Assembly: GCA_017525505.1 (NCBI GenBank)
Contig: JAFXSR010000012.1
Coordinates: 234,502-298,501, forward strand
Length of the DNA: 64,000 nucleotides
Reading direction: 5' to 3'
Source of the DNA: Bacteroidales bacterium
GTDB lineage: Bacteria > Bacteroidota > Bacteroidia > Bacteroidales > WCHB1-69
A program made the position numbers and the translations under genes. Of this stretch, positions 46,776 to 64,000 are shown in pieces. Position 1 is the first letter of the stretch. The number at the start of each line of letters is the position of its first letter. Below the pieces are notes generated by a model, which did not search any database, had not been told where the DNA came from, and saw nothing but the letters and a program-made list of their open reading frames with translations.

Positions 46776-48185
46776 TTATTGAAGTGGGATGACACTCCGG
46801 TCAGCGGGGGTGAAGTCCGGCATTTCCATGCCTACTGGCGCACCGATGTATGTCGGATCGCAGATGACATATTTCTTGCCTTTGTGCTGAACGTATTCCC
46901 CTTTTACTTCTGTGGGGAAATGCACGGCGGCGGCCACATGTCCGGGATAGTCAATTAATACTACGTCCAAATGCAGCAAGTGACGCACCAAAAATGAGAA
47001 AAGCACACTGCGGTCTTCACAATCATTATAAGGGTAATAGTAGTTTTCCTCACAGAAAAACGGCTTCTCGAATCCGAACTGATCGTCATCGGTGGCGTAA
47101 TCAAAACCGTATTGCAGGTATGCCAGCAAAAACGACACGGCATCGTATGTGGATTGTGTCTTTAGGTAAGGCTTAAAGGCTTGCTCTATCGATTCACAGA
47201 ACAATTTGCTGGGAGTGGCATTGGCATACACACTCATGTCCACCTGCGGATAAGTCTTGAACAACTCTATCATGCTTAGGTTGATATGAATTTCTTTTTC
47301 ATCGTTTGTGGTTTCCATGCTTTTCAAAGGCCGCGGCAGGTTCATATCCAAACTGTGAGTGCTTTCGGGGAATGGAATATCGTAAGTTCTGAATGCCTTA
47401 GAGCTTTTGATATGATTGTAATATGGATCAAGTTCGAAAACATAATAGCGTTTGCCGGCAATATCCACAAACGAAATGCCATACAACTGTTGTTCTACTG
47501 CTATCAGGCAGAATAGGTGTGTTTGGGCGAAGCCTACTTTGGCTTCCATTCCAAGTTGGTTGAGCAGAAAAACCGTCATCACGACTTGTTCGTTGTATTG
47601 GTGGTCGTAGATTTGCTGAGCCATGCGAAGCACCAATTGGTAAACAGCCCAGTCGTTGAAAGCCTGCTGTTGGCGGGCAATATGGCAGCGTTGCAGCATC
47701 TCTTCACAGTCGCATTCCGACAGTTGTATCCAAAAGTCAGAGACATCATCAACGGTAATCCCTTTCAACCCACTTGGAAACGGCTTTTTGATTAGATGAA
47801 TATTTTCTCCAAAAAGATTGAAATCAAGGAAATTTAACTGTTCTGCAGGAAAGCTTGAGGGCTCGTTTTCCACTGGTTTATCAGGAGACTCTTGCGGAGG
47901 CAGTTGTGGCTTCACTACTGGCAGTTCGGGCACATTGTCTTTTTTGATTTCAGGCAGTTTGTCTGGTTTCGGTTTGGGGTCTCTCACCATCGGTTGCTCG
48001 CCGGTAAAAGCCCTCATATTGGCCGCCATTGCCTCCGCAAACTGCTTGTTGATGCTATCTACAAAGTTGTTGAATTGCTGTTGGTTCTGATTCATAAACG
48101 CATTGAATTCCTCTTCAAAATTCTGTGCCTGCACCGAAGTCACCCACCCCAAACATACAATGAATAACCCAATGAATTTTTTCAT
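46776..48185 (-). CDS. Exported protein with a transglutaminase-like Cys-His-Asp domain
   Basis: Signal peptide, Pro-rich linker, DCEDRS...GHVAAAV...CDPT. Confidence 0.7.
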   Translation of the reverse strand: MKKFIGLFIVCLGWVTSVQAQNFEEEFNAFMNQNQQQFNNFVDSINKQFAEAMAANMRAFTGEQPMVRDPKPKPDKLPEIKKDNVPELPVVKPQLPPQESPDKPVENEPSSFPAEQLNFLDFNLFGENIHLIKKPFPSGLKGITVDDVSDFWIQLSECDCEEMLQRCHIARQQQAFNDWAVYQLVLRMAQQIYDHQYNEQVVMTVFLLNQLGMEAKVGFAQTHLFCLIAVEQQLYGISFVDIAGKRYYVFELDPYYNHIKSSKAFRTYDIPFPESTHSLDMNLPRPLKSMETTNDEKEIHINLSMIELFKTYPQVDMSVYANATPSKLFCESIEQAFKPYLKTQSTYDAVSFLLAYLQYGFDYATDDDQFGFEKPFFCEENYYYPYNDCEDRSVLFSFLVRHLLHLDVVLIDYPGHVAAAVHFPTEVKGEYVQHKGKKYVICDPTYIGAPVGMEMPDFTPADRSVIPLQ

Positions 48186-48203
48186 ATTACAATTTCTAAT
48201 TTT

Positions 48204-48244
48204 GAAAGTGCGGACTCCCTAATCTCCAAAGGATCCGCACTCTC
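48204..48244 (-). terminator. Hairpin between the 48285 and 46776 genes (terminator or stabiliser)
   Basis: AGTGCGGA...TCCGCACT inverted repeat. Confidence 0.5.
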
Positions 48245-48284
48245 AACTATTAATTATTAATTGTTAACTATTAATTGCAGGCTG

Positions 48285-49031
48285 TTATTCTGCCACTTCA
48301 TCATACTTCGGCATATCCTTCGCCACTTGTTCTGTCAACTTGTCCATACCTAACAGTTTCTCTAATTGTGCCTTATTGATGTCCGAATCTTTCTTAAGTT
48401 CGTCCAAAATCACCTCACGGGCAATGGCGATAGCAGCTTTCATGTCATAGAGCATGGTTGTTCTCACACGATAGTTTCCATTGCTCAGTTCCTGATAAAT
48501 TTCCATGGTTTTGAAGGTGCGACCAAGTTTCTGTGAGACAATTACTTTGGCGTTCTCTACGGTTTTGGTGATGGAAGCGGCTTCTTTAGCGGAGATTTCC
48601 TGGTTGGCCAAAGCCACATCGGTCAGAGCGGCCACACTGCTGCTTACTTGAGCTGCTATACGCAGTTTGGCAACGTTGTCGGCTTGTGATTGCGCTGCGG
48701 CGAATGAGTTGGCGGTTGCCATTTCCTGTGCCCAGATGTAGCGAGGATAGCCGGATGCTTCTCTATCGTACATTTTCAGCCAGGTTTCATCCAACTGTTT
48801 GGCAATGGGCAGTCCCATGGTTTTCCAGCCCTCTTTTTCCAGTTTTTTTGCTTCTTTTTGCGCCATTTTTTCTGTTTTCTGATATACGGCAGCGTGAAGT
48901 TCTTTCTGCTCCTTCTTCAATTCCTTGTTTTCTTTCTTTTGAGCTTTGCTGTTCTGGGCTGAAACAGGACTTGCCACCATAATACATACGGCCAAAACGA
49001 CCATGCTGAATAATTTGATTGCGTTTTTCAT
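48285..49031 (-). CDS. Conserved exported hypothetical protein, LPP20-like
   Basis: Signal peptide, KEAKKLEKEGW, AAAQSQADNVAKLRIAAQVSSSV pattern; fold call is an inference. Confidence 0.6.
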   Translation of the reverse strand: MKNAIKLFSMVVLAVCIMVASPVSAQNSKAQKKENKELKKEQKELHAAVYQKTEKMAQKEAKKLEKEGWKTMGLPIAKQLDETWLKMYDREASGYPRYIWAQEMATANSFAAAQSQADNVAKLRIAAQVSSSVAALTDVALANQEISAKEAASITKTVENAKVIVSQKLGRTFKTMEIYQELSNGNYRVRTTMLYDMKAAIAIAREVILDELKKDSDINKAQLEKLLGMDKLTEQVAKDMPKYDEVAE

Positions 49032-49222
49032 TTTTGATTGATTTTAATGATTATTATTGATTACAACATTGTTCAATCGCTGTTTTCATTCCTATATAGC
49101 AACAAGTCCACACCAATCTATCAAATATATTTTCTTTTTTTTGAGCAAATGTTTTATCCGCTTAAATATCAGTGATTTGCAATAAAAAAAACAGCAGATT
49201 ATTAATTGTCAATTGTCAATTA

Positions 49223-50062
49223 TCAATTGTCAACTATGTTCACTCCCTGCCACAGCACACGTTTCTCGCTCTTTTTGATTTTCGACAGCCAATTGATGAC
49301 ATTCTCATACGTCACGGTTTCCATGAACGGGTAAGATTTCTTGAGGGCAACAATCAGAATAACTCCTTGCTCAATATTGTCTCTTACGTCACTGATTTCC
49401 ATGGTGTATTCGAAGGGCGAGTTGTATAAAAACGACTTTCCTTCGGGGGGGAAGTTCACAGGAATGTCCGCTTTGAGTTGCACATCCTTGAAAACGCCTT
49501 CAAGTGGGTATATTTGTGCATTTTCAGAGGATTTTTTGCCGAAAAAGAAAATGCGAAGATAACAATCCATGGAAGGTGTAATGGTAAATGTCATTTTCTC
49601 CCCCGAAAGATAGGTGTTCTTGAAACCTTCGGTTTTGAACTGGAAAGCGAGGTCCTCCTTGCTTTCCTCCACCAGTACTTCAGCGCGGATGGTAGTGCTG
49701 TATTTGATAAGTTGGTCGTCTGTAAACACTGGCGATGCATCGGTTCGCTCTTTGATGCGAACACGTCCTTCCAACTCAATGCGGCTTAACTCTGAAGAGA
49801 TTTCCTGAAACTCGGTGCCCGTGTTGCCCATTACGATGATGGTGGTGGAGGATACATCCTCGAACACACCGGCTTCCCGTAAAGCCTCCTTTTTCGCATT
49901 CAGCAAGGCCTGTGCCTGACCGTAAGCGGGAGTCTCGTTTTGGTTGGCCACGTATGTGCCCGTAGCGGTCACCGTGCGGGTTTGTTCCCGCTGGGCGAAG
50001 AGAGTTGCGTTGGTACACAACACCAGTACCATAATAATTCCGATTCGAATGTGTTTTTTCAT
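49223..50062 (-). CDS. Exported protein with a DUF4384-like C-terminal domain
   Basis: Signal peptide; QALLNAKKEALREAGV N-domain; YLSGEKMTFTITPSMDCYLRIFF...IYP. Confidence 0.6.
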   Translation of the reverse strand: MKKHIRIGIIMVLVLCTNATLFAQREQTRTVTATGTYVANQNETPAYGQAQALLNAKKEALREAGVFEDVSSTTIIVMGNTGTEFQEISSELSRIELEGRVRIKERTDASPVFTDDQLIKYSTTIRAEVLVEESKEDLAFQFKTEGFKNTYLSGEKMTFTITPSMDCYLRIFFFGKKSSENAQIYPLEGVFKDVQLKADIPVNFPPEGKSFLYNSPFEYTMEISDVRDNIEQGVILIVALKKSYPFMETVTYENVINWLSKIKKSEKRVLWQGVNIVDN

Positions 50063-50073
50063 TATTTGTGTAT

Positions 50074-51876
50074 TTATTCTTTGTTTATTGACTTTAGAAT
50101 CACCCAATGGCCCTCTTTTCGACCGCCTTCACGGATTATATACCCTTTGTCATGAAGAGCCATCAAATCCCGTGTAATGGTTCTAGTTGCCACTCCAATC
50201 TTTTGTGACATTTCAAAAATTGTCACCAAAGCATTATTTGCCATCATTTTCAATATAAACATTTGTCTATCAGTTAGTTCTTTTGTGACATCTTTTATGA
50301 CATCTTTTATGACATCTTTAGTGACATTTTTAGTGACATCTATAGTGTCATTTGGTATGTCACCTTGAGTATCATTTTTTGTATTACTTTGAGAGGTGTT
50401 ATGTGGGGCACAACCTTCTAATTCATTATTTATCAATAATATCCATCGCCCAGCACTTGTATTGCCTTCACGAATTAAAATACCTATATTCTGTAAAATA
50501 TTAAGATTTCGCTCTAACGTTCGCTTAGCCACCGACAAAACTACCGACATTTGGTTAACAGTAATTCGGGGGTCTTTTTTTATTAGTTTGCACATTTCTT
50601 TTTGAATATCAGACAGTTGAACTACCGCCAAACTACCGCCAAAACTACCGCCACTACCGCCACTGGGGACAAACTGGGGACAAACTGGGGACAAACTGGG
50701 GACATCTTTTGTGACACCAGTTACGACATTTTTCCCATTTCGGGTTAGCTGGATAAACTTGGTCCGTTCTATGCTGACTTGCACGCCGCCGCAGAAATTG
50801 GCGACCTTAGGCATGGGAATGCCTGCTTTCGTGAAGCCATCCCGAATTTTCTTATAGCCACGGCCCCAGGCATCGATAAAGCCTGCCTTGAACATGGCGT
50901 TGGCTATATTGTGGTTACGGGGCTTGGAGGTATGATGTCCCATAAGGACTTTCTCGGAATAGCCTTCCGGCAACTCGCCTTCGTTCCAAATCTCCAGATG
51001 GTCGTCATAGACATGCATTTGAATGTCTGGGCCGATGTAGTCCTTGTGGGCAATGGCATTATAGAGTACCTCACGCAAGGCCTCTTTGGGTATTTCCAGC
51101 GTCTCGTAGCGCTGCATGCCTTCAAAGCGCACGGGCGAAACAAGATATTTAGCCTGAAGAATATCCATTACATGGTCGGCCATTTGGATGACATTCCCCT
51201 CTATGACATCGTGAAAGAGGAGGTCGGCTTCATCGTTGCCGAAACGGCCAACCTTGAACTTGGCGTTTGGGAAAAATCTCTGGGGATTCTTGCCAAAGAG
51301 GAGGATGGCCGCATTCTTCAGCATGCCATTATCGTCCAATAGGCTAAGGTTGGTGAGCACATCTTGGGTGGAAGCTTGACGCTGGTCTTCGGGAATGCGC
51401 TGTGCCTCAATGCCCTTGCGAAGGAAATACTCGATAGCCTGACGGTCAATATCGTCGAATGATGCACGATCGCAGGTGACATCGTCCCACGAGCGACCCA
51501 TTTTCTTCATGATAAACTGCTGGAGAGCGGTGCCTCGCAGTTCCTGTTTAGTGGAGCCTGAGCGGTAATGATAAGTGCCACGATAGGCAATAGGAATATT
51601 GCTGGGCTCCACCACAATTTCCATGTAATCAAGCTCGCCTTCGTGGTGCAGGTTGACATTGACAACTATACCGAGGTGGGTGGCCACCTTGTTGGGAATG
51701 TCCTCCATGAGCTGCTTGCTATTCTTTACGCCGACAATTTCCCTCTTGTCGCTCACACCGATATAAATGCGTCCTCCTTGGGCGTTGGCGAAACCGCAAA
51801 TCCATTTCATATACTCGTCACGCCATGTTTCTTTGCACTCTACGTTTTGGCTTTCTATTTCTTTTATGCTTTTCAT
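50074..51876 (-). CDS. AlbA_2 (Schlafen-like) plus RecG-C/HATPase_c_4 protein with two winged-helix domains
   Basis: ESQNVECKE, GFANAQGGRIYIGVSD, ALREVLYNAIAHKDY, PRN, WGRG; two wHTH ending REG...GxW. Confidence 0.88.
   Translation of the reverse strand: MKSIKEIESQNVECKETWRDEYMKWICGFANAQGGRIYIGVSDKREIVGVKNSKQLMEDIPNKVATHLGIVVNVNLHHEGELDYMEIVVEPSNIPIAYRGTYHYRSGSTKQELRGTALQQFIMKKMGRSWDDVTCDRASFDDIDRQAIEYFLRKGIEAQRIPEDQRQASTQDVLTNLSLLDDNGMLKNAAILLFGKNPQRFFPNAKFKVGRFGNDEADLLFHDVIEGNVIQMADHVMDILQAKYLVSPVRFEGMQRYETLEIPKEALREVLYNAIAHKDYIGPDIQMHVYDDHLEIWNEGELPEGYSEKVLMGHHTSKPRNHNIANAMFKAGFIDAWGRGYKKIRDGFTKAGIPMPKVANFCGGVQVSIERTKFIQLTRNGKNVVTGVTKDVPSLSPVCPQFVPSGGSGGSFGGSLAVVQLSDIQKEMCKLIKKDPRITVNQMSVVLSVAKRTLERNLNILQNIGILIREGNTSAGRWILLINNELEGCAPHNTSQSNTKNDTQGDIPNDTIDVTKNVTKDVIKDVIKDVTKELTDRQMFILKMMANNALVTIFEMSQKIGVATRTITRDLMALHDKGYIIREGGRKEGHWVILKSINKE
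50279..50392 (-). repeat. 12-bp intragenic tandem repeats (VTKD/DT type)
   Basis: GATGTCAYWAAA-like units encoding DVTKNVTKDVIKDVIKDVTKE. Confidence 0.85.
50621..50704 (-). repeat. Intragenic ACTACCGCC(A)n x4 and ACTGGGGACAA x about 4 tandem repeats
   Basis: Directly visible on the plus strand at 50621-50661 and 50662-50704. Confidence 0.9.
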
Positions 51877-52075: not shown

Positions 52076-53386
52076 TTATGTTAACTTTCCAATTTTCAAG
52101 CCGAGCTTCAAAAACATACTATGTCTTGCAATGTGGTATGTATATTTGATAGGTGTCCAAGCAAAGGAAAATCGATCATGATTATTTGTCCATTGACAAT
52201 AAACGAAATAATATCCTATACATACTGTGAATCTTTCGATATCAACACCTAGGCCAGAATATATGGCATAGCTCGGATTTTTAAAACCCTCCCTTAGAAA
52301 TTCTACTCCAGGGGATAATTCTACGTATGGTTGAATTAATTTGTTGATAGGATAAGAGCCACGTAAATCAAGATGTAATGAGATAGACCACTTAGAATCC
52401 GTATCCCAACAATTGCCACTACTATTCCAGAGGTATTTATCTATAGGCCAACTACGAACTTGACCTATATTTCTGTTAATGTTTGATAATATTCCGATGT
52501 ATCCGTAATCATATATTCTAATACCGAAACTCCATGCTAATAAATTCCAACTTGCTTCAAAATGAGTAACTTCATTGTCAATATTTGTACTTGTACTACC
52601 TATGAAATCAAGACCCATACAGAAATAAGTTTGAAATCTTGTTCCTTTGATAAAAGGTCTGGGGTTATATTGTTTGTTTTTTGTGGGATTATACTGTGCT
52701 ACATTTTTGGTGGAAGAATAACTTGTTTTTGATTTTGTCTCTTGATTTGTTTTAAAAACCACTTGTTCCCCATACGCTATACCAACGCTATTGGTGGCGT
52801 ATGCCCTTACGTAATATTTGCTTTTTGGGGAGAGATTTGATAAGGTAGAGGAAAAGAACCATTTTGCGGACCCTTTTGTGTGGCTATCATAGATTGTGGG
52901 CTTTGCTTTTTTACTCCAGCAAAAACCGGTTGAGGTAATCTCCGAACCCCCAGTGGATGATATATCACCAGTGGCCGTAGCTGAATAAGATGTGATGTCG
53001 GTGACAGAAATTGTCAAAACGACAGGCAATGATAAGACTGGTTTTGCTCGTACCAAAAAAACAACTTTATCTTCTACAAATTTTTCCTTCTCCGCCAAAA
53101 CATCCCACACTATGGTTTTGTGACCTTCTGCAACACTCTTGCCCACATCTCCGCTAAGATTATGAAGTTCGATGTATGTTTTCCCGCCATCTATTGAAAG
53201 GTGCAGCGAAATCTCTGCCTGCTTGTCCAAATCATACGACACATGAATGGTTTTGTCCACCTGCTGCGCAGTGACATTGGAAACGGTTTGGGAGTATGTT
53301 GCCGTTGGTAATATAAAAAGTGCTAATAGCCAAATGATTAGTTTGGCAAGAATGTTTTCTGTATGAATTGTAGGATTACTTTTCAT
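52076..53386 (-). CDS. Exported protein: conserved N-terminal module, FN3-like domain, probable beta-barrel
   Basis: Signal peptide; VSNVTAQQ...SGDVGK...IVWDVL; YYVRAYATNSVGIAYG; alternating aromatic C-terminal strands. Confidence 0.65.
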   Translation of the reverse strand: MKSNPTIHTENILAKLIIWLLALFILPTATYSQTVSNVTAQQVDKTIHVSYDLDKQAEISLHLSIDGGKTYIELHNLSGDVGKSVAEGHKTIVWDVLAEKEKFVEDKVVFLVRAKPVLSLPVVLTISVTDITSYSATATGDISSTGGSEITSTGFCWSKKAKPTIYDSHTKGSAKWFFSSTLSNLSPKSKYYVRAYATNSVGIAYGEQVVFKTNQETKSKTSYSSTKNVAQYNPTKNKQYNPRPFIKGTRFQTYFCMGLDFIGSTSTNIDNEVTHFEASWNLLAWSFGIRIYDYGYIGILSNINRNIGQVRSWPIDKYLWNSSGNCWDTDSKWSISLHLDLRGSYPINKLIQPYVELSPGVEFLREGFKNPSYAIYSGLGVDIERFTVCIGYYFVYCQWTNNHDRFSFAWTPIKYTYHIARHSMFLKLGLKIGKLT

Positions 53387-53395
53387 GAATACAGG

Positions 53396-54226
53396 TTATA
53401 TGTCAATCTTTAAGTCATCTGCTTTTTGAGATTGTTGATTAAGAAAAGATAACAAGTGTTCGAAATCCGGGTAAACTGTTGATATGTCTATCCCCATTAA
53501 TGCCAACTCTTTTAACAAGCTCTTTTTACTGTCCTTGTCAATTAATGCCTGATTTTTGTGCCAATTGGGCATTCCCTCAATTTGCTTTTCATGGAATTGA
53601 TGTTGGGGATTGTCAGATGGTCTTAATGGCGCTATAATAAAAGCACCTCTTTGAGCTGTAACCCGATTGTTGTTGTATGGTGATAAAAAGAATTGAGGTG
53701 TATATAACTCTTTTTTCCATTTTTCAAATCTTTCATTGGGAATATTAAGTGATTTCCTTTCAGACTCAATAATCATGTCGTATTCTGTGGAATTAAATAT
53801 ATTTTTCATTACCATATCAGCAATGAGTTTTGGATAATATTCGTTTTCTTCACCATCAGCACAATAGCAAAAGACTTTCCCATCTTTCTTTTCTTCATCG
53901 GAACAAGCAAAAAACAAAGCAATTAATGGATTTGATGTTAAATCCAAGAGCCGAGTGTGTAGGCCATAATGTTGTAATACAATCATTTTCTCCAAATTTG
54001 TTGGGTACTCCTGAAGATATTTCCAAGCATACCGAAACGTATCACGCAATAATTTATTCTCATCAGTGCCGGGTTTCCTAAAAATCGAAGGGGTTAGTTT
54101 CCATTCTGCATCAGCTTGGCCTCGAAAGAACAAATGGTCTTGTTGCCATGTAAGATCGGCGACCTGGATATATTTACAATTGCGGACCCATTCAAGATAG
54201 GATTCTATTGAGGTTATTTTGTCCAT
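53396..54226 (-). CDS. FRG domain protein
   Basis: FFRGQ, LTPSIFR, QHYGLHTRLLDLTSNPLIALFFAC, AQRGAF, VYPD. Confidence 0.93.
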   Translation of the reverse strand: MDKITSIESYLEWVRNCKYIQVADLTWQQDHLFFRGQADAEWKLTPSIFRKPGTDENKLLRDTFRYAWKYLQEYPTNLEKMIVLQHYGLHTRLLDLTSNPLIALFFACSDEEKKDGKVFCYCADGEENEYYPKLIADMVMKNIFNSTEYDMIIESERKSLNIPNERFEKWKKELYTPQFFLSPYNNNRVTAQRGAFIIAPLRPSDNPQHQFHEKQIEGMPNWHKNQALIDKDSKKSLLKELALMGIDISTVYPDFEHLLSFLNQQSQKADDLKIDI

Positions 54227-54255
54227 AGCGTAATTTAATAAAAAAGTAGAATTAA

Positions 54256-54954
54256 TTAATCTTCTATATATGCGGTTTTTAGAAAATAAACATTAGCTTC
54301 CTTGTTAAGGTAAAAAACAAATTTTAAGTTATGTTCACCAGATCTTATTTTAGAGATGTAATCCGTTTTTATATTTGGATCGTTTTCCAAATCTTGACAA
54401 AGAAAGGCTTTAACTAATGCCACCATAAAATGATGAATCCAAGACATGCTTTGTTCACCTTTTTTAGTTGTTACAGCAAGTTTTTGGAAGTTGAAGTGCT
54501 TGAAAGTGTGAAAAAGACCTCCGATAAATTCATTTTCCTTGTCTATTCTATAAAAATCCAAGCGCAAAATCCTGTCCCTTTTTAATCCTTTTTCATCGTA
54601 TTCACCTATGTATGCAAATTTTTCTTGTGAGAAACTTTCTTTGAATTTTTCAAAAGGCATATTTGCATATAAAGTGTTGTGTAATCCCCTTAAAACATCT
54701 ATGGTCATTCCTGTGCCAAATAAATTCGAATTCTGTTTAACAACTTCTAAGAGCCTTTCATTGATGATTAAATCCTCAAAATAACGACAAGGTAAAATGA
54801 AATAAGGATGTGCTTTTTCAAATAATGCAACCTCCCCACAATGCAATAATTGTATGGCAGGGTGAGCCAACCAGGAATCCTTACCTTCGCTTACCGAAAT
54901 GCTTTTTGAAATTTCGTCGATGTCGTTTAAGAATTGTTCTTGAAATTTGTTCAT
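54256..54954 (-). CDS. Hypothetical cytoplasmic protein
   Basis: 232-aa AT-rich ORF co-oriented with its neighbours; GGLFHTFKHF and C-terminal FLKTAY. Confidence 0.7.
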   Translation of the reverse strand: MNKFQEQFLNDIDEISKSISVSEGKDSWLAHPAIQLLHCGEVALFEKAHPYFILPCRYFEDLIINERLLEVVKQNSNLFGTGMTIDVLRGLHNTLYANMPFEKFKESFSQEKFAYIGEYDEKGLKRDRILRLDFYRIDKENEFIGGLFHTFKHFNFQKLAVTTKKGEQSMSWIHHFMVALVKAFLCQDLENDPNIKTDYISKIRSGEHNLKFVFYLNKEANVYFLKTAYIED

Positions 54955-57900: not shown

Positions 57901-59290
57901 ATTGATAACTATTTGCCCCCGATGCTGTGAGTGTAGTACTTTGTCCATAATTGATGTTAGTATTGCCAGAAACAGCAATGTTAACGACATTGCATAGTGT
58001 ATTCAATGTTCTCTGTTCCCCATAACTTGTTCCTTCGCTGTTGGTGGCATACGCCCGCACATAATATGTGGTGTTTGGGACAAGACCAGTGATACTGCTG
58101 GTAAAGGCACCTGTGCCACTTCCATCAGTGGTATGATTATCACCAATGGTTGGGTTCTGATTAGTGCTCCAGCATATACCACGAGCAGTAACTGTCGCAC
58201 CACCATCAGAGGTGACATAGCCTCCGCAAGTAGCGGAGTTATCTGTAATATTGCTTACCACAGAAGTTGTTACAGATGGGATAGTGGCAAGGGTGTTAAA
58301 TGTCACCTGTTCTCCATATCCTGTAATGCTTGCACTACTGGTGGCGTATGCTCTTACGTAATATGTGGTGCCAGGATTCAAGTTGGTCATAATGCTGGTG
58401 AAATCCCCAGTTCCGGCACCAACGGAAGTATGATTTTCATTAATAGTAGGCCCAATTGCGGTGCTCCAGCAAATACCCTTATTCACAATCATGGCCTCTC
58501 CGGTATAGTTTACATTGCCACCGCAAACGGCAGAAGAGCTTGTAATATTACTAACTTCATTTGTAATAACTGTGGGTGTCAAATTAAAAGGCAGAATGAG
58601 GGTTTCACTTTCGTTTTGCCGTTGGGTAATGGTTTCGCTTTTGTATTCTACTCCGTTAATAACGGTATAACCTGTGTGCTGCAATTCGTCGCCATTATGG
58701 AAGGGGTAAATGCCCATGGCTTGGCCATTTTTGGCACCAGATTCAAATTCACCGTTTTGGAATGATGCACTAACATGGCAGATAGAATTTTCGGCACCAT
58801 GGCCATTATTTACCATTTTCAGGTGCATTTGCTCATTTTTAACCGTAACCTTCAAAATATATACTTGAGGATTGGTCAGGTTGGCGGAAAACAAGTGTGC
58901 CCCAGCAGATAAATTGGCATAATATTGGCTTATAACCGTCTTGCCCATCAGGTCGAAAATCTCCAATAAAGCATCTGCCCCTTCTCGCAGATAAAGTGTG
59001 AAATGGGTGGTGCCATTAAAGGGGTTGGGAACATTTTGCTCCAATTGTGAGTTGCTTGAATTGCCATAATCAATTATGCCCACACCTCCTAAAACCAAGG
59101 TGGTGTCAGGAAAATAGAGCACTTCTTCCCACAGTTGGTCAAGATTAAAGGTCTTCACATGGTCCAATCTGACATAATGCTGCCCCGTTTGGTCTCTGCC
59201 TGTAAATTTAACAGTAAGCGTTTGCGTATATGCATAGGTGCATAACATCATGCATATTATTACAGCGAATGCTTTGAGTATTTTTTTCAT
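54999..59290 (-). pseudogene. Frameshifted exported FN3/Ig-repeat protein with two Fib_succ_major domains and an N-proximal T9SS-CTD-like domain
   Basis: ORFs 56795-59290 and 54999-56798 join by a -1 shift near 56900, which restores the FN3 repeat (PIDECGICWDTIQYPTINSNHTTD...MTNLSPGTTYYIR). Confidence 0.8.
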
Positions 59291-59325: not shown

Positions 59326-60195
59326 TTACATAGCCAAACGCAAACCCACCGCAAACGAATTGTTGGCTTCGGGCAGGCAATTGCGGCATTTGCAGCGGGA
59401 ATATGCAGCTTCGTAGGAGAAACTGCCACCACGTACCACCCGTTTCTCTCCGTAAGAAGGACCTGTCGGATTGTCAACATGGGAATATGGATATTCCCCA
59501 TAATAGTCAGCACACCATTCCCAAAGATTGCCGCTCATGTCATATAGTCCTAACTCGTTAGGAGTAAGCATGGCCACAGGATGCATGGCACCATTGGAAT
59601 TGTCCTTATGCCAAGCCACTGCATTGGCATTGTTGCTGCCACTGTATAAATAATCATGGGAAACTGTACCACCACAAGCGGCAAATTCCCATTCCGCCTC
59701 GGTGGGCAAGCGGAATCGCAAGTTGGAATAGCTGTTCAGCTTGTTGATAAATTCCAAAGCTTGTGTATAGGAAATGTAATTGGCAGGGTAGTTATCACCT
59801 TTGCCGTATTGCTCGTTCCAGAGCTCATGGCAGCCCATAATGGTTTGCCACTGTTGCTGTGTTATGGTCGTTTTGGCTATATGGTATTCTGACAAGTAAA
59901 CACTGTGAGTGGGTCCTTCATCTTCAATGCCACTGGAATAGGAACCCATATCGAAAACACCACCATTGATTTTAACCATAGAGGAAGCAATTTCGCGTAC
60001 TGTCTGTTTCACATTTTCCGGCAGGTCATTATCATTCCAAACAATGGTTAGATGGTTCACTTTGTCCGCAGGATATAATTTGGAATTCTGATACAGGTAA
60101 TAGCCCTTGTCAAAATAGGAGTCTTTCTCGCAGGAGACAGCTATTACGGCTGTCAGGAATAAGATAAAATATAGGATTGGTATTCTGTTTTTCAT
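59326..60195 (-). CDS. Formylglycine-generating enzyme (FGE-sulfatase/SUMF1) domain lipoprotein
   Basis: Lipobox AVSC; FDMGS, FRLPTEAEWEFAA, PNELGLYDMSGNLWEWC, RVVRGGS, GLRLA. Confidence 0.92.
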   Translation of the reverse strand: MKNRIPILYFILFLTAVIAVSCEKDSYFDKGYYLYQNSKLYPADKVNHLTIVWNDNDLPENVKQTVREIASSMVKINGGVFDMGSYSSGIEDEGPTHSVYLSEYHIAKTTITQQQWQTIMGCHELWNEQYGKGDNYPANYISYTQALEFINKLNSYSNLRFRLPTEAEWEFAACGGTVSHDYLYSGSNNANAVAWHKDNSNGAMHPVAMLTPNELGLYDMSGNLWEWCADYYGEYPYSHVDNPTGPSYGEKRVVRGGSFSYEAAYSRCKCRNCLPEANNSFAVGLRLAM

Positions 60196-60207: not shown

Positions 60208-61044
60208 TTATCTGTTTCTCTTTTTATTAGGAAGACAAAAGCCTACACCGGCTTTGGCCTCAACCGTTTTGAAATTGGTGGTGACCACTTCTGCCGAAAG
60301 GGCGAAGCGTTTAATGTCGAATAAGAGTCCGAAAGACACATCCACACCATGATAAGTACGGGCGGGATAGCTGTACCAGTGCTGGTCGTAAGTTTGCAAG
60401 GTCAGGGTGCGGTAGCCGTAGCCAACGCCAAACAGCATGTATAGCGGTTTGCAGGGACGTACCACCAAACCTGCTTGTACGGAGAGACGGGCTGTCTTAT
60501 GCTTTCCGTTCAACAGGTAGAAATCCCCGTCAACCAAAGGCTTGTACATGCCTTTGAAGTTGAAATTCGTCATGGCACTGACAAACCATCCCACATTTTT
60601 CGCCTGTCCCACTTTGAAGCCATACGACCATTGTGGCAGGGGACTGTAGGCGGCGTTTAGGGTAAAGAAGGTGTTGTATGGCATTTCCGCCCGGCGTTTC
60701 TTCTTCCATTGTTTTTCCGCATTGCCATCCACACGAACCATGAAAACGAAATCATCTCCAACCAATTCCGCCATTTCTTCCAGCACATTCCACACGATTG
60801 TTTTTCGGCCGGGACCAATGGTTTTGCCCACATCTCCACTTACTTGTTTTAGCTCCCGATAGGAATTGCCACCATTAGCGGAGATATAGACGGAAATGTC
60901 CGCTGCTTTATCCAAAGAGTAAGAGATGTGAATGTTCTTGTCCACCTGCTGTGCAGTAACATTAGAGACATTTTGTGCCCATAGGCTCTGGCAGCATACA
61001 GTCACTAATGATAGAATTACAAGTTTTATTGATAGGCCTTTCAT
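60208..61044 (-). CDS. Exported protein: conserved N-terminal module plus probable small beta-barrel
   Basis: N-domain paralogous to that of 52076-53386; amphipathic strands GVGYG and KAGVGF. Confidence 0.65.
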   Translation of the reverse strand: MKGLSIKLVILSLVTVCCQSLWAQNVSNVTAQQVDKNIHISYSLDKAADISVYISANGGNSYRELKQVSGDVGKTIGPGRKTIVWNVLEEMAELVGDDFVFMVRVDGNAEKQWKKKRRAEMPYNTFFTLNAAYSPLPQWSYGFKVGQAKNVGWFVSAMTNFNFKGMYKPLVDGDFYLLNGKHKTARLSVQAGLVVRPCKPLYMLFGVGYGYRTLTLQTYDQHWYSYPARTYHGVDVSFGLLFDIKRFALSAEVVTTNFKTVEAKAGVGFCLPNKKRNR

Positions 61045-61075
61045 TCTTAATTATTCATTCTTAATTCTTAATTAT

Positions 61076-62752
61076 TCAGAATCTCCAGTTTTGCCAGCTG
61101 TCTTGCACCTGCAGAGAGGTATTTACTTCGGGAGTTTGGTCTTTGCGGTTCACACGCAGACTGCTTTCACCTACGCTTTCATTTAGGTAATCAAACAATT
61201 CAGAATAGTTGCATTCGCCTTTGCTGTCTTGGAGTTTCTTCAGCAGGAAATAAGTAAACATGCCATGTTTTTTATCTGTATAAGGCAAGGCTGTCTGATC
61301 TGCCGCGGTGGCTGAGAATACCACAATATTTCCACTTAGAGCGTCTTTCTTCGGCGTTACTTTGATACCACGGGAAGCTACCAATCCCATGTCACGACCT
61401 CCGCCGCTGAAACAGGCGTCCAGAAACACAGTGATACGCTGGGCATTTGTGGAGCTCAAGCTCTGGTATAAGTCGTACAGGGCAATGGCGGAAGTGAGAT
61501 TGGAGGCATTGACATCCACGGGAATCAGGTAAGGTTCCTTGGTATTTTCATTGGGAAGTCCGTGTCCCGCATAGTAGAAGATGATTTCAGCTTGCGGGTC
61601 ACGTGCCGCCAAACGGGTAATGAAGTCAATTTCCTGATTCATTTTTGCGGAGGTGGCATTGTTCAAAAATGAAATATTTCGTGCATCTACGCCCAATGTT
61701 TTCTCACAATACTCTTTGAACATGGTGGCATCTTCCGTCGCAAAGGGCACATCCTGCTCACTGTTTAGACCTCTTTGATAAGAGTGGTAATCCTGATTTC
61801 CGATGATGATAGCATAACAATGGGGATTGGATTTGTTAGTTTGAGGAATGTCGCGATCCACGTCCGAACGCAACGACACGTCTTCAATAGCTGTATCTTT
61901 GATAATGGGAACGACAGTTATGGTGCCACTGGCCAAGGGCTGGTTCAGTGTCAGATTGATGTCTTTATTCTGTCCGTATTTGCCGTGTTTTTCAGAGATC
62001 TCCACTTTAAGAGGAAGCGAAGTTCCTTCATATCTTCCGTTTACTATCAGTTGGAAATTCAGGGTTTGGGTTTCTCCCGGACCCCATGTCGGGAAAGTGA
62101 ATAAATCTTGTCCGCTGATATTAAGCACATTGTCAGGATGCTTAAGTTTAACAGTGACATTCTCTCCTATGCCTTGTTGTATGTTCTGTAACAGGATCTG
62201 CAAATTGAATTGTTTTTGTTTTTCCAGAACACCGCCATTGTCACCTGAAACGATATAATCTTTGACCACAATCAAAGGTTCTTGGAATTTACGGGTTTGC
62301 ACACGCAGTTTATAAGGTTCCGTGTTGAAACCGAGCGGTTCATCCACATAAACCGTGAATTCCGCTACGCCATCAGCTGTTTTCATGGTGGTGGTGATAG
62401 GAAATTCAACTGTAGCAGTACCATTCACTTTAATGCTTGGAATCTTTTTGTCTGAAACAGTGATGCCATTGGTGGTACCCGAGGCTGAAATTTTGGCAGT
62501 CAATCCCAAGCCATCACCTAAGCCAATGTTTTTCAGTTTCATCACAATCTTACATTTCTCATTGGCATCAATGGCCTTGTTGTCATCCTCATCCACAAAG
62601 TAGGGTGCTTCCACAATCTCCCACAATGGTGGTTTTACCTCTTTGGTAATGTTAAAACTCATGCGAGGGCTGGTGGCTTCCGATTGTGCCGTTATCGTTC
62701 CTGTGTACAATATCAGGAGCAATAAGGCAACAAATAGTTTTCTTATTTTCAT
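61076..62752 (-). CDS. Exported caspase-family (peptidase C14) protein with Ig-like domains
   Basis: Signal peptide; YAIIIGNQDY, FYYAGHG (His), FLDACFSG (Cys), HGMFTYFLL, QTP. Confidence 0.92.
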   Translation of the reverse strand: MKIRKLFVALLLLILYTGTITAQSEATSPRMSFNITKEVKPPLWEIVEAPYFVDEDDNKAIDANEKCKIVMKLKNIGLGDGLGLTAKISASGTTNGITVSDKKIPSIKVNGTATVEFPITTTMKTADGVAEFTVYVDEPLGFNTEPYKLRVQTRKFQEPLIVVKDYIVSGDNGGVLEKQKQFNLQILLQNIQQGIGENVTVKLKHPDNVLNISGQDLFTFPTWGPGETQTLNFQLIVNGRYEGTSLPLKVEISEKHGKYGQNKDINLTLNQPLASGTITVVPIIKDTAIEDVSLRSDVDRDIPQTNKSNPHCYAIIIGNQDYHSYQRGLNSEQDVPFATEDATMFKEYCEKTLGVDARNISFLNNATSAKMNQEIDFITRLAARDPQAEIIFYYAGHGLPNENTKEPYLIPVDVNASNLTSAIALYDLYQSLSSTNAQRITVFLDACFSGGGRDMGLVASRGIKVTPKKDALSGNIVVFSATAADQTALPYTDKKHGMFTYFLLKKLQDSKGECNYSELFDYLNESVGESSLRVNRKDQTPEVNTSLQVQDSWQNWRF

Positions 62753-62755
62753 AAT

Positions 62756-63664
62756 TTATTGCTTGTTGATATTATAATCGATATTGATTTGTCCGCTTTG
62801 TTCGTCCTTCGAACCATCTTTATAAGTCACAGCAAGCTTCCATGTTAGTTGCTTTTCTGGATAAATCTTTCGATAGGACAGCTCGTAACGTTTTGTGTCT
62901 GTATCCGTAACTTCAACAATCACTTTGTTTGAAGCATCTTTAACTGAAAAGTGCAGTTTTTGCACATTGCTTGCATTCCACTCGAAAACAAAAGTTTTGT
63001 CAAGATTCTTGCATAGTACCAAATAGTTGCTTTTGTTGGGCTTTGTAATGCTTAAGCTATTGGTTTCCTGGGTTGAAGCATAGTGGCGTTCCTCAACTTG
63101 CACGCTAAGATATTCGTTAGAAAGTGTGGAGGAAGGTGTTTCTGTCGGAGGTGTCGCAGCCGTGGAAGTCTCATTCTCTACAGTTGAGGAAGTCGCTTCC
63201 GAAATGACACTTTCTGGTGTCTCATTTTGAGCGATATAAGTCTGCTCTACTTTCGGCTGTATCAGGGTTGAATCAGTTTCAGATTTATTGTCTTGGACCA
63301 AAGTGTTCTGTGGATTTGTTGAGCGAAGCAAAAGATAAATGGTGCTGGCCAACAAAATGGCGGCCACGGCAGCTGCTGCCATGGTAAAAATTCTAATACT
63401 ACGTCTGCGTTTTGTAGAGACATTTGGTTTATCCGCTTGGGATTCAGGCAAAACGCTGCGGATACTTTGTGCAGCTACTTCCAGGTTAGGTTTTCTTAAT
63501 GGCTCATGGTCAGCCAGTTGGGATGCTTTGGCAATGGCGGTAAACTCATCCATCAATTCGTGATTTTCCGCCAGCAGTTGGAGAATCTGTTCGTTTTCCT
63601 CCTCGCTGGTCCGGCCATCCAAAAATCTGGAAAAAAGCTCTTCTGAAATATTCAATTCCTTCAT
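62756..63664 (-). CDS. Putative anti-sigma factor (single TM helix)
   Basis: N-terminal EELFSRFLDGRTSEEE, one TM helix, Ser/Thr-rich linker, beta-rich C-domain; overlaps the sigma gene stop. Confidence 0.7.
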   Translation of the reverse strand: MKELNISEELFSRFLDGRTSEEENEQILQLLAENHELMDEFTAIAKASQLADHEPLRKPNLEVAAQSIRSVLPESQADKPNVSTKRRRSIRIFTMAAAAVAAILLASTIYLLLRSTNPQNTLVQDNKSETDSTLIQPKVEQTYIAQNETPESVISEATSSTVENETSTAATPPTETPSSTLSNEYLSVQVEERHYASTQETNSLSITKPNKSNYLVLCKNLDKTFVFEWNASNVQKLHFSVKDASNKVIVEVTDTDTKRYELSYRKIYPEKQLTWKLAVTYKDGSKDEQSGQINIDYNINKQ

Positions 63665-63999
63665 GACCTGTAAGCTTTTAGTATTTTCCTTAAATGTGCG
63701 ATGGCGCGGCTTTTCACGGTGTAAGCATAGTCAATGGACAAATCATGTTCAGCAGCAACATCTTGGATTTCAGCACCGTCCAACAATAGCTGTCGGGCCA
63801 CATCACGTTCAGTGTCGTTCTTCAAACTATCGATTGCCTTTTGAATGTCCATTTTTACCAGCTCCTGATTTTCCTGCTTGTACTGTATGATATTATCATC
63901 CCATTTTTCATGTATAGAGATGAGGCCGTAGGAATCTATCTTTGATTTCTTATAATTCATAAAAAAACGGAATGAAACCACTGATATCCAGGTGTTTAA
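63661..63999 (-). CDS. ECF-type sigma-70 factor, C-terminal part (truncated by window edge)
   Basis: Open to the window end: LNTWISVVSFRFF (region 2) and AIDSL...ERDV...QDVA...YTVKSRAIAHLRK (region 4). Confidence 0.8.
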   Translation of the reverse strand, partial: LNTWISVVSFRFFMNYKKSKIDSYGLISIHEKWDDNIIQYKQENQELVKMDIQKAIDSLKNDTERDVARQLLLDGAEIQDVAAEHDLSIDYAYTVKSRAIAHLRKILKAYRS

Positions 64000-64000
64000 T

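Follow-up and report, generated by a model that had tools for sequence, protein, structure and literature searches.

In the accessible parts of PMC3032545 and PMC4359373, LapG is described as a periplasmic protease that releases the adhesin LapA. We analyzed a 64,000-nucleotide stretch of DNA from a Bacteroidales bacterium (the window; contig JAFXSR010000012.1) that contains a locus resembling the Lap system (LapG/LapA/LapD, Pseudomonas and relatives) in encoding an exported transglutaminase-fold Cys-His-Asp enzyme near repetitive surface proteins of very large size. Structurally, this transglutaminase-like protein is matched best by LapG, yet sequence identity is 12-15%, and a further N-terminal domain (~300 aa) of the protein has no clear fold match. 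Furthermore, the locus comes from a different phylum, encodes no LapD-like partner, c-di-GMP receptor or T1SS genes, has an LPP20-fold protein as the partner of the enzyme, and cleavage of a neighboring protein is only putative here.

Surveys of prokaryotic orthocaspases and metacaspases report, in the text accessible, FGE-sulfatase and DUF4384 as fused partner domains (PMC3501461, PMC7475262, PMC6426788, PMC8283722). The locus shares with these proteins a C14 domain with a His-Cys dyad and the association with FGE-sulfatase and DUF4384, and one relative (G094) carries a caspase-FGE fusion. However, the partners here are for the most part encoded separately within a conserved cluster, all of them are exported and accompanied by a second cysteine enzyme, and the setting is Bacteroidales rather than cyanobacteria. 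Caspase-like, FGS (FGE-sulfatase) and PEGA domains are also features of the NTP-dependent conflict systems of Kaur et al. 2020, but judged against the accessible part of that paper (PMC7159879) the locus is not a member; the NTPase components (MoxR, vWA, STAND, GTPase) are absent and the proteins are exported.

Two further comparisons concern a protein fold and an RNA. The predicted fold of a 248-aa protein of the locus is similar to the Lpp20/Tip-alpha/HP1454 fold family of Helicobacter pylori (Z 6.2-8.3), but the protein falls short of the Pfam LPP20 model (one of 21 members of its family matches, at E 0.001), and its family has no conserved lipobox cysteine and carries an extra N-terminal Lys/Glu-rich helix. 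In the accessible portion of PMC11697453, FopS, one of the FopS/GibS multicopy sRNAs of Bacteroides, has a single-stranded 5' seed and a terminator, acts in trans on susC mRNAs and is deposited in Rfam. The RNA ahead of the locus likewise belongs to a multicopy, terminator-ended family in Bacteroidales, but differs from FopS as described there in being a gene-adjacent leader of ~250-300 nt with several helices and an alternative pairing.

Gene organization and the caspase module

Thirteen genes, all on the minus strand, occupy positions 46776-64000 of the window, and every gene named in the original prediction was located there. Two points need amending, as the FN3 and FISUMP ORFs are one frameshifted gene and the sigma gene overruns the window end. 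The first six genes were correctly described as no more than 35 bp apart, with gaps of -4, 3, 31, 12 and 35 bp by ORF coordinates. Sequence analysis detected N-terminal hydrophobic export signals in the caspase, both Ig proteins and the FGE, FN3, DUF4384 and LPP20-like proteins, a weaker one in the transglutaminase-like protein, and none in the 232-aa, FRG and AlbA proteins. Bacteroides -7 boxes lie in the gaps upstream of the AlbA gene (~51923 and ~51935) and the LPP20-like gene (TATATTTG, ~49122-49129), and therefore a single operon or co-regulated unit spanning all 13 genes is unlikely.

The caspase-like C14 peptidase (61076-62752, 558 aa) has a signal-like N-terminus followed by a CARDB/Ig-like region, and matches Peptidase_C14 (PF00656; 84.3 bits, cut-off 21.4) and CARDB (26 bits); the match to NCBIfam caspase_w_EACC1 is weak (68.9 bits, cut-off 140). 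Its motifs are GHG and DACFSG, and the His-Cys dyad is intact, H397 and C447 being conserved without exception in the 20 homologues aligned. Adjacent to it is an exported protein of 278 aa (60208-61044) that combines an Ig-like adaptor N-domain with a barrel-like C-terminus and for which Pfam and NCBIfam searches returned no match; an outer-membrane barrel (Atlas 0.87) is only a lead. By alignment, its N-domain is common to partners in relatives and to a second Ig-adaptor protein (52076-53386, 436 aa, also found in the relative L036), which continues with an FN3-type repeat and its own barrel-like C-terminus. This N-domain of ~90 aa is joined to different partners, namely a barrel-like C-terminus, a DUF5683-type membrane segment, FN3 plus barrel, and an FGE domain, making the idea of variable lectin-like parts plausible.

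The FGE-sulfatase-fold (C-type-lectin-like) lipoprotein (59326-60195, 289 aa) matches PF03781 at 150.8 bits and carries the lipobox ...AVSC. PorK/GldK was considered as its identity and ruled out, as the GldK model scores 73.7 bits and has a cut-off of 350. Next is a large FN3-repeat surface-protein gene with two FISUMP domains (54999-59290, ~1430 aa), annotated as an FN3 ORF (56795-59290) and a FISUMP ORF (54999-56798). The repeat unit runs on in the other frame, indicating a single gene with one frameshift near 56,890-56,905, and relatives are single ORFs of 1239-2689 aa (1264 aa in G058). The protein gives fn3-type matches and matches Fib_succ_major at 227 bits. That this presumed cargo gene is frameshifted in the present genome weighs against the processing model presented below. 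The DUF4384-like exported protein (49223-50062, 279 aa from the ATG at 50062) scores 26.6 bits with PF14326, marginally under the cut-off of 27, and its family adjoins the caspase in relatives; a profile search returned FlgP as the sole match (E 0.25).

Conservation in other genomes

Two comparative sets were used, one of 80 loci with the transglutaminase-like gene as anchor and the other of 151 genomes of the order, counted family by family. Of the anchored loci, 21 contain the LPP20-like gene, which directly adjoins the anchor in 17 of these; the caspase is found in 17, DUF4384 in 15, Ig/barrel in 23 and FN3/FISUMP in 22. Where the caspase is present, so frequently are the Ig protein (14 of 17 loci), FN3/FISUMP (13), DUF4384 (11) and the LPP20-like protein (11). 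The 151 genomes contain the caspase in 45 cases, the transglutaminase-like enzyme in 40, the LPP20-like protein in 19 and DUF4384 in 13, and all 13 DUF4384-bearing genomes have the caspase. Half of the DUF4384 matches (7/14) are <2 kb from a caspase match, and 11 of 23 LPP20-like matches are <5 kb from a caspase or transglutaminase-like match. This neighborhood analysis of core versus variable genes bears out the expectation that the core families co-occur in other genomes, and they do so far beyond chance.

The notion of one conserved core is borne out in part only. It recurs elsewhere, but as two separable modules that are often apart: 20 of the 40 genomes with the transglutaminase-like enzyme have no caspase match, and 25 of the 45 caspase genomes have no transglutaminase-like match. 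The data support a caspase module, comprising an FN3 or lectin-fold protein, an Ig-adaptor membrane protein, the CARDB-caspase and the DUF4384 protein, and a transglutaminase-like module, comprising the LPP20/Tip-alpha-fold protein and the LapG-like Cys-His-Asp enzyme. A contiguous caspase-Ig/barrel-FGE-FISUMP (1484-1844 aa)-DUF4384-LPP20-transglutaminase arrangement with no inserts is seen in three relatives (L037, L039, L040), and L044 has the same genes in a different order behind sigma/anti-sigma. In Bacteroides and Muribaculaceae, the transglutaminase-like enzyme sits in another operon, with DUF6175. A second locus of the same genome is ordered leader-sigma-antisigma-transglutaminase-...-FN3-...-LRR, the LRR protein being 1516 aa long and bearing a T9SS sorting domain; there too the enzyme is accompanied by a giant surface protein. 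At 58 of the 80 anchored loci there is no FN3/FISUMP relative within 10 kb, which, like the separability of the modules, is an observation against the processing model.

Sigma factor, anti-sigma and leader RNA

The 3' part of a divergent sigma-70-family gene of ECF size (63661-64000) continues past the window end; the full-length protein is ~190 aa (L003:2163-2735), and the contig ends ~400 bp beyond the complete gene. NCBIfam sigma70-ECF matches under its cut-off (E 5e-4) and a Pfam search gave no match, while a profile of 10 homologues matches FliA sigma region 4 at E 7e-5 and, at E 0.19, an ECF sigma-2 chain, so that the family assignment is based mainly on region 4. Overlapping the sigma stop by 4 bp is the gene for an anti-sigma-like single-pass membrane protein (62756-63664, 302 aa), which matches NF052375 anti-sigma at E 6e-5 (23 bits, cut-off 100) and has one hydrophobic segment (residues 88-116) and a beta-rich, periplasmic C-terminal domain. 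Homologues of it follow sigma in G002, L044, L045 and L050, and also at the second locus of the same genome.

Regulated proteolysis of anti-sigmas is an established mechanism for ECF sigmas. The locus could accordingly be read as a trans-envelope signaling system, in which lectin-fold/FN3 receptors sense a ligand and the exported proteases, rather than processing adhesins, fill the site-1-protease role by cleaving the periplasmic domain of the anti-sigma and freeing the ECF sigma. The beta-rich periplasmic domain is consistent with this, as is the position of sigma/anti-sigma directly ahead of the module in G000 (two loci), G002, L044, L045, L050 and L057. However, sigma is present in only 7 of the 80 anchored loci and 5 of the 17 with a caspase, and its subfamily in 6 of the 151 genomes, compared to 40-45 for the enzymes. 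Most of these systems therefore work without the sigma, and we consider the signaling reading unlikely. For the same reason the predicted ECF control of the core is a lineage-specific feature, not conserved across related loci.

The new finding here is the leader, a structured RNA outside known RNA families, with a terminator at its end; a search of Rfam 15 gave no match at E up to 1. It also lies ahead of two paralogous loci of the same genome (the second locus and the C81 LPP20-DUF4384-caspase cassette) and precedes sigma or caspase in L044, L045 and L037; in every case a gene in the same orientation follows it directly. Covariation is seen for the terminator stem and also for an alternative helix. 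In the stem, compensatory change is seen in 24 of 28 pairs and 94% of cells are paired, compared to 41-52% with partners slid, in an alignment that was fitted to the model and in which 3 of 39 rows match the same sites in antisense orientation; in the alternative helix 92% of cells are paired, compared to 21-58% when slid. A -7 box is located 118-199 nt upstream in 17 of 32 leader copies, and between the hairpin and the downstream gene in only two of 32.

Transglutaminase-like and LPP20-like proteins

Predicted folds back the labels originally given to the last two proteins. The exported transglutaminase-like protein (46776-48185, 469 aa; AF2 pLDDT 84) aligns over residues 316-469 with LapG at Z 9.1-10.1 (126-144 residues aligned), and in an unbiased search of 48,161 chains its best 38 rows all belong to the transglutaminase/papain-like superfamily. 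All 28 sequences compared retain C389, H416 and D443. The exported LPP20-like protein (48285-49031, 248 aa; pLDDT 77) has a predicted fold matching Tip-alpha (Z 8.0-8.3), Lpp20 (Z 7.5) and HP1454 (Z 6.2), whereas the unrelated rows that come next score 5.8 and 4.6.

The enzyme's fold also matches the true transglutaminases FXIII and TG2 (Z 7-8), and as modeled would be equally compatible with cross-linking or deamidation as with proteolysis. Clan-CD enzymes can act as transpeptidases, PorU being an example. It is conceivable, then, that the locus builds a surface layer or matrix, the transglutaminase-fold enzyme cross-linking the FN3/FISUMP and Ig-adaptor proteins and the caspase acting as a sortase-like transpeptidase to give a covalent protein coat; the enzymes are indeed encoded next to repetitive FN3 proteins. 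Nevertheless, the best fold matches are proteases (LapG, Z 9-10), and the FISUMP protein has no T9SS sorting domain, the Por_Secre_tail match being weak, N-terminal and below cut-off (E 0.004), making such a builder distinctly unlikely.

Inserted guest genes

Cytoplasmic guests account for three of the 13 genes, two of which are located in a variable islet of low GC content (0.335-0.36 at 52-55 kb). The 232-aa gene (54256-54954) had no match in Pfam, NCBIfam or PADLOC, and is outside the system; in the 95%-identical relative L036 a 373-aa GNAT-like gene takes its place. Its neighbor is an FRG-domain gene (53396-54226; PF08867, 82.4 bits) that PADLOC assigns to the phage-defense candidate PDC-S15 (E 1e-53) and that occurs in just one of the 80 related loci. 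The AlbA_2/HATPase_c_4 gene with two wHTH domains (50074-51876) occurs in three of the 80, none of them among the 17 with a caspase.

The original prediction had raised defense as a role, in which the exported caspase would kill or lyse upon sensing phage or competitors. The FRG and Schlafen/AlbA genes lie inside the locus, and caspase-like peptidases and FGE-type (FGS) domains are known from the conflict systems of PMC7159879, yet as far as the accessible text goes those are built on NTPases (MoxR-vWA, STAND, GTPases). These defense-like genes are strain-variable inserts, which L037, L039 and L040 lack and which have been replaced in L036, the core is exported and not cytoplasmic, and PADLOC matches it with a generic caspase model only. 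A defense role is therefore not indicated for the core, and a system for defense, programmed death or antagonism is very improbable.

Proposed function

That there is no system at all, but chance neighbors or an artifact of a fragmented assembly (85 contigs, 88% complete) with insertions and a frameshift in the locus, is scarcely credible given that the same families recur as a group, with changes of order, across dozens of independent genomes. The cluster is real, recurring and uncharacterized, and its carriers are rumen and gut Bacteroidales.

We tentatively favor two conserved extracytoplasmic modules, interrupted by guest genes, whose enzymes act on neighboring surface proteins. Expression would start with the structured 5' leader, in which the terminator may compete with an anti-terminator helix, and in this lineage the divergent ECF-type sigma/anti-sigma pair would form the next regulatory step, although the direction of regulation is conjectural; the LPP20-like and transglutaminase-like genes probably have an additional housekeeping promoter of their own. 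In the first module, the exported C14 caspase-like peptidase stands beside the Ig-adaptor membrane protein, the DUF4384 protein and a lipoprotein or giant surface protein of FN3 or lectin-fold (FGE, FISUMP) type; in the second, the exported LPP20/Tip-alpha-fold protein adjoins the LapG-like enzyme. The Ig-adaptor and LPP20-fold proteins may be envelope scaffolds, perhaps of a complex. By analogy with periplasmic LapG freeing LapA, the putative substrates of both enzymes would be the large lectin/FN3 surface proteins encoded next to them, and the physiological role of the cluster in these bacteria may be to process, anchor or release those proteins.

Gene organization of the locus

The source genome (G000) is assembled into 85 contigs and is 88% complete, and the window corresponds to positions 234502-298501 of its contig C36. 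In ORF calls over the window, the minus strand holds every long open reading frame from 64000 down to 46776. The first gene in transcription order encodes a sigma-70-family protein of ECF size that is cut by the window end; it is complete in the retrieved locus L003, and the contig ends ~400 bp further upstream. It is followed on the same strand by a gene for a single-pass, anti-sigma-like protein, and then by genes for a protein of 558 aa in which a signal sequence and a CARDB/Ig-like region accompany a Peptidase_C14 domain (61076-62752), a 278-aa exported protein with no family match in Pfam or NCBIfam (60208-61044), an FGE-sulfatase lipoprotein, and an 831-aa ORF of FN3 repeats that precedes an ORF of 599 aa carrying two FISUMP domains (227 bits). 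Downstream of these lie a 232-aa ORF with no matches, an FRG-domain gene, a gene for a 436-aa exported protein whose N-terminus is similar to that of the 278-aa protein (52076-53386), a gene matched by AlbA_2, HATPase_c_4 and double-wHTH models of Pfam and NCBIfam, a DUF4384-like gene and, as the last two, the genes for exported proteins of 248 aa (48285-49031) and 469 aa (46776-48185), neither of which has a match in Pfam or NCBIfam.

The 831-aa and 599-aa ORFs are a single gene, because the FN3-type repeat of the first frame runs on, past a frame switch at ~56,890-56,905, in the other frame and ahead of the second ORF's ATG. Single unbroken FN3/FISUMP ORFs of 1239 to 2689 aa are found in relatives. 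The site has no long homopolymer, and the frameshift may be a real pseudogene or an assembly error. Once the two ORFs are counted as one, the thirteen genes of the original prediction hold, as does its close packing of the first six, which are separated by -4 to 35 bp. A hydrophobicity scan predicts export signals on every protein except the sigma factor and the 232-aa, FRG and AlbA proteins.

Profile searches with the sigma family returned a significant match to sigma region 4 only (FliA, E 7e-5), region 2 being matched by the ECF chain 5or5 at E 0.19. The sigma protein has no Pfam match and scores 19.8 bits against the NCBIfam sigma70-ECF model, for which the cut-off is 42.9. The anti-sigma-like gene overlaps the sigma gene by 4 bp, and its product has one transmembrane segment and reaches 23 bits against an anti-sigma model with a cut-off of 100. 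A PADLOC match of the same protein to PD-T4-6 (E 3.5e-5) falls over a Ser/Thr-rich linker and was taken as compositional.

AT-rich simple repeats of the TTGACAAT and AATTAAGAAT types come immediately after stop codons at 49198-49240 and 61045-61075. Contigs of two public runs pile up at these sites, with a word depth of 220-460 compared with ~7 elsewhere, so repeats like these are present in many other contigs of the two runs. Immediately 3' of the cluster, a PIN_3 toxin-like gene (135 aa) and a preceding 110-aa gene without matches (45901-46652, minus strand) look like a toxin-antitoxin pair, and further downstream is a radical-SAM/BATS-domain gene of 466 aa (43627-45027, minus strand) that is unrelated to the cluster.

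Two putative exported cysteine enzymes and their neighbours

Exported homologues of caspases occur widely among bacteria, and we know of no role for them. The 558-aa protein, hereafter the caspase, matches Pfam PF00656 at 84.3 bits against a gathering score of 21.4, and its His-Cys dyad, H397 (GHG) and C447 (DACFSG), is invariant in 20 of 20 homologues. The FGE lipoprotein matches the C-type-lectin-like family PF03781 at 150.8 bits (gathering score 23.3); as a T9SS PorK/GldK protein it was rejected, with 73.7 bits against the NCBIfam equivalog cut-off of 350. Fusions of caspases to FGE or DUF4384 domains are recorded in orthocaspase surveys (PMC3501461, PMC7475262, PMC6426788, PMC8283722). The DUF4384-like protein falls just short of PF14326 (26.6 bits, cut-off 27), and its relatives score 19-25 bits. 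A reading of its N-terminus as LPP20-like was dropped because hhalign of the two families paired signal peptides only; a weak lead to FlgP was obtained for the family at E 0.25. An Ig-like domain of ~90 aa, which we term the Ig-adaptor, is common to several proteins, among them those of 278 and 436 aa, and is fused to differing membrane or lectin-fold parts. Atlas searches with the Ig/barrel and LPP20-like proteins returned unnamed clusters only, besides leads at 0.86-0.87. DGR diversification of the lectin-fold domains was considered and rejected, as G000 (88% complete) gave no RVT_1 match and control genomes did.

The 469-aa protein (hereafter TGase) belongs to a family with 2176 relatives at E ≤1e-5, the best 120 of which have no Pfam domain, those that are named being called hypothetical. 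Its profile found chance matches only among PDB sequences (E ≥0.69). An AlphaFold2 model was built from a 28-row alignment (pLDDT 84), and in Foldseek its top match was LapG (probability 0.99, E 0.03), followed by putative cysteine proteases of Bacteroidota and transglutaminases. VIA-align superposed residues 316-469 on LapG with Z of 9.1-10.1 and rmsd of 3.3-4.8 over 126-144 residues. A separate search of 48,161 representative chains, independent of Foldseek, placed members of the transglutaminase/papain-like Cys-His-Asp superfamily in all of its top 38 rows. C389, H416 and D443 are invariant in the 28 aligned sequences and stand in the canonical order. No clear fold match was found for the N-terminal 300 residues. 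The model thus assigns the protein a transglutaminase/papain-like core fold of the LapG type, bearing out the transglutaminase-like label that it had been given from sequence.

For the 248-aa protein, the label LPP20-like stood for the fold and not for the family. Its model (pLDDT 77) aligns with Helicobacter pylori Tip-alpha at Z 8.0-8.3 over 134-144 of ~145 residues, with Lpp20 at Z 7.5 over 110 of 115 residues and with HP1454 at Z 6.2; unrelated rows reach Z 5.8 and 4.6. Because these scores are near the tool's noise ceiling of ~8, the predicted Lpp20/Tip-alpha fold has moderate support. Pfam LPP20 (PF02169) does not match this protein and matches one of 21 family members (E 0.001), and the signal region of the family has no conserved cysteine that could form a lipobox, A-x-A-Q being conserved instead. 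It is therefore an Lpp20-fold protein rather than a member of Pfam LPP20. A predicted complex of the TGase with this protein scored 0.00 with a mark of 0.32, which speaks neither for nor against binding.

Conservation of the cluster in Bacteroidales

Relatives were sought in a sample of 151 genomes spread over the same order as G000. The caspase family is present in 45 of these, often as several paralogues, and the TGase in 40, mostly as a single copy; the LPP20-like protein was found in 19, the DUF4384 protein in 13 and the sigma subfamily in 6. All 13 genomes with the DUF4384 protein have the caspase, and 15 of the 19 with the LPP20-like protein have the caspase and 13 the TGase. Both enzymes occur together in 20 genomes versus ~12 expected under independence. 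With regard to location, 7 of 14 DUF4384 matches are within 2 kb of a caspase match, 11 of 23 LPP20-like matches are within 5 kb of a caspase or TGase match and 8 of 46 TGase matches are within 10 kb of a caspase match, with many of the remaining matches sitting on short contigs. Among 20 caspase-anchored neighbourhoods examined, the sample's closest relative of the source genome (G002) has the order sigma-antisigma-DUF4384-caspase-(Ig+FGE)-...-PEGA/FGE-...-TGase. Other arrangements include caspase-LPP20-TGase in G024, FN3-Ig/DUF5683-caspase-DUF4384 in G080, G070 and G024, and a caspase-FGE fusion in G094.

Screening 80 TGase-anchored loci, carried mostly by rumen and gut Bacteroidales MAGs, with the proteins of the window identified an LPP20-like gene in 21, directly adjacent to the TGase gene in 17 of the 21. 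Ig/barrel genes are present in 23 of the 80 loci, FN3/FISUMP in 22, the caspase in 17, DUF4384 in 15 and FGE in 8. Where the caspase is present (17 loci), it is accompanied by Ig in 14, FN3/FISUMP in 13, DUF4384 in 11 and LPP20-like genes in 11. The series caspase-Ig/barrel-FGE-FISUMP-DUF4384-LPP20-TGase is contiguous in three loci (L037, L039 and L040), equivalent to the locus of the window minus its inserts, and in a fourth (L044) the same gene set follows sigma and anti-sigma genes in a different order. The proposal that the core genes co-occur in other genomes is supported in part; in some well-assembled genomes (G057 and G110) the two enzymes are clearly apart.

In Bacteroides (the cultured B. 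fluxus, L095, among them) and Muribaculaceae, the TGase belongs to a different conserved operon and, at 554-608 aa, is encoded by its last gene (L048, L049, L071, L076, L077, L088, L091, L095, L100 and L115). The other exported proteins of this operon are of ~302, 429, 378, 444 and 220 aa, the 429-aa protein being a DUF6175 protein, a family for which no mention was found in the literature.

G000 itself carries two further loci. At the other end of the same contig (C36:1-12000, L121), a paralogous locus begins with a leader RNA followed by sigma and anti-sigma genes and encodes a TGase paralogue that is 38% identical. Its further products are a pair of small exported proteins, an FN3 lipoprotein and a BspA-LRR/InlB-repeat protein of 1516 aa that bears a T9SS sorting domain, and the locus also holds a DUF2971 insert. 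A third cassette (C81:13385-17229, L004) consists of a leader RNA, an LPP20-like gene, a DUF4384-like gene (286 aa), a 186-aa lipoprotein gene and a gene for a 504-aa caspase with a Lipoprotein_16-like N-terminus.

Inserted genes and transcription units

GC content drops to 0.335-0.36 at 52-55 kb, where a strain-variable islet (53396-54954) contains the FRG-domain gene and the 232-aa gene, which is of no known family. The FRG protein matches 13 models of the PADLOC candidate PDC-S15 (E 1e-53), a candidate defence family only. In L036, a locus whose flanking genes are 94-96% identical, a 373-aa GNAT-like gene takes the place of both, and the FISUMP reading frame runs unbroken for at least 1239 aa. 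The FRG gene was found in one of the 80 TGase-anchored loci and the AlbA gene in three, none of them among the 17 with a caspase. Different cytoplasmic guests sit at similar places between exported genes in other loci, parallel to the AlbA and FRG inserts of the window: DUF2971, 23S_rRNA_IVP four-helix proteins and AAA_14/DUF4143 ATPases, the latter two kinds at L017:5930-6298, L019:15388-15744, L016:10119-11330 and L050:3237-4517. Given the low GC content, the replacement in L036, the rarity among loci and the varied guests elsewhere, the 232-aa, FRG and AlbA genes are not part of the system.

Bacteroides-type -7 boxes (TAnnTTTG) mark possible internal starts of transcription: two precede the AlbA gene, within a gap of 199 bp, and one precedes the LPP20-like gene, within a gap of 191 bp, so that these gaps hold three of the nine minus-strand boxes in the 18.2 kb scanned. 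The gap between the LPP20-like and TGase genes contains a stem-loop rich in G+C (48205-48250), GTGCGGATCC...GGAGTCCGCAC with TTTC after it, which may act as a partial terminator or in RNA stability. General scans gave no excess over shuffled sequence for sigma-70 promoters (41 sites versus 43.3) or terminators (19 versus 16.5).

A structured leader RNA

A conserved element of ~105 nt that ends in a U-run came to light when the upstream regions of sigma genes were compared, and G000 has four full copies of it. The copy at this locus (C36:298836-298943, equivalent to L003:2838-2945, minus strand) is ~100 nt 5' of the sigma start, outside the window. Others are located at L004:17110-17217 (minus strand), L118:705-812 and L119:1509-1617 (both plus strand), and in relatives at L044:6834-6941, L045:8330-8437 and L037:2691-2795; the element adjoins the sigma gene in L044 and L045 and the caspase gene itself in L037. 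At the other end of C36 it precedes the second sigma-antisigma-TGase-...-FN3-...-LRR/T9SS-cargo locus, on C81 it precedes the LPP20-like-DUF4384-like-lipoprotein-caspase cassette and on C13 a gene for an exported protein. All three caspase/TGase/LPP20-like loci of G000 are therefore headed by the leader. A search of Rfam 15 with cmscan at gathering scores returned no match for the leader in L003, L044 or L045, the one hit being an unrelated tRNA in L045, and L003:2780-3228 gave no match at E up to 1, and the idea that the element belongs to FopS/GibS or to another family in Rfam was dropped.

A covariance model built from six copies located the leader in 18 of the 151 genomes, at up to eight copies per genome. 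At 26 of the 27 sites outside G000, a co-oriented ORF of at least 60 aa has its ATG within 400 nt, mostly 11-162 nt downstream, and most of these ORFs encode exported proteins or lipoproteins, as judged by their N-termini. In an alignment of 39 matches fitted to the model, three of them antisense, the terminator stem shows compensatory change in 24 of 28 pairs, and 94.4% of cells are paired, compared with 41-52% when partners are slid. Of 32 copies, 17 have a -7 box 118-199 nt 5' of the hairpin, and only two have one 3' of the hairpin, ahead of the gene that follows; at this locus, where the copy has an extra insert, the box is 254 nt 5' of the hairpin. A second box, TCGCAAAyTT, is found at 51-150 nt upstream in 17 of the 32 copies, where chance would give 0.026 per 300 nt. 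When 14 extended copies were aligned with MAFFT, further conserved helices emerged. In that alignment one segment, "Box B", has the potential to pair with the terminator's 5' arm and does so in 91.8% of cells, compared with 21-58% when slid, with compensatory change in four of seven pairs and a covariation score that was reached by none of 500 shuffles. Together, the -7 boxes, the conserved boxes and helices, and the covariation of both terminator and Box B point to a 5' leader, ~250-300 nt long, in which a terminator competes with an anti-terminator, and which is a candidate for a new family of RNAs.

Proposed function of the locus

The data show two exported proteins that have cysteine-enzyme folds and intact sets of catalytic residues, together with conserved exported neighbours, large lectin/FN3 surface proteins alongside the enzymes, and a leader RNA in common. 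On this basis we tentatively favour a reading in which the two cysteine enzymes would act on the adjoining large surface proteins, by the logic outlined for LapG and LapA (PMC3032545, PMC4359373), while the Ig-adaptor and Lpp20-fold proteins would hold the assembly at the envelope and the leader, in this lineage together with the sigma factor, would set expression. In contrast to the Lap system, no gene for a LapD-type receptor or a cleavable adhesin was identified by Pfam or NCBIfam within the locus. Proteolysis of the anti-sigma protein is unlikely to be what the enzymes are for; sigma genes are present in seven of the 80 TGase-anchored loci and anti-sigma genes in four. Cross-linking of a coat by a TGase, an enzyme whose matches do include transglutaminases but whose top match is LapG, appears rather unlikely. 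A role in defence or death is improbable: NTP-dependent conflict systems, as outlined by Kaur et al. (2020, PMC7159879), use caspase and FGS domains as this locus does, but their required NTPase core (MoxR-vWA, STAND or GTPase) is absent among its 14 ORFs in Pfam and NCBIfam, and the locus was rejected as such a system. That these genes, contiguous in other genomes, are neighbours by chance is very hard to credit.

The individual parts come from folds and families already on record, and envelope loci in which exported cysteine enzymes are paired with large surface proteins are a known kind. For the gene cluster itself, a search of the literature exclusive of supplements found no description, in keeping with the original prediction, which knew of no functional one; the papers found for DUF4384 with caspase are domain surveys or unrelated. 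Building on the proposed action of the two enzymes on surface proteins, a broader proposal, which we regard as possible if doubtful, is that the locus represents an undescribed Bacteroidales envelope system. Both enzymes, docked via Ig-adaptor and Lpp20-fold scaffolds, would mature or shed interchangeable lectin/FN3 proteins, within a regulon of exported proteins under a new riboswitch-like terminator/anti-terminator leader that here would also drive a dedicated ECF sigma factor.

To our knowledge, few cis-regulatory RNA classes are known in this phylum. The leader, for which no description was found in the literature or Rfam, is independent of the protein question and is a candidate for a new class in which terminator and competing helix both covary. 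For the proteins, exported caspases are now placed in a specific genetic setting that is conserved among abundant Bacteroidales of the rumen and gut, and a testable set of caspase partners can be named: the Ig-adaptor, the DUF4384 protein, the Lpp20-fold protein and the LapG-like enzyme. If the enzymes govern whether large lectin-type surface proteins are displayed or released, this would be a new route by which fibre-degrading gut bacteria regulate adhesion.
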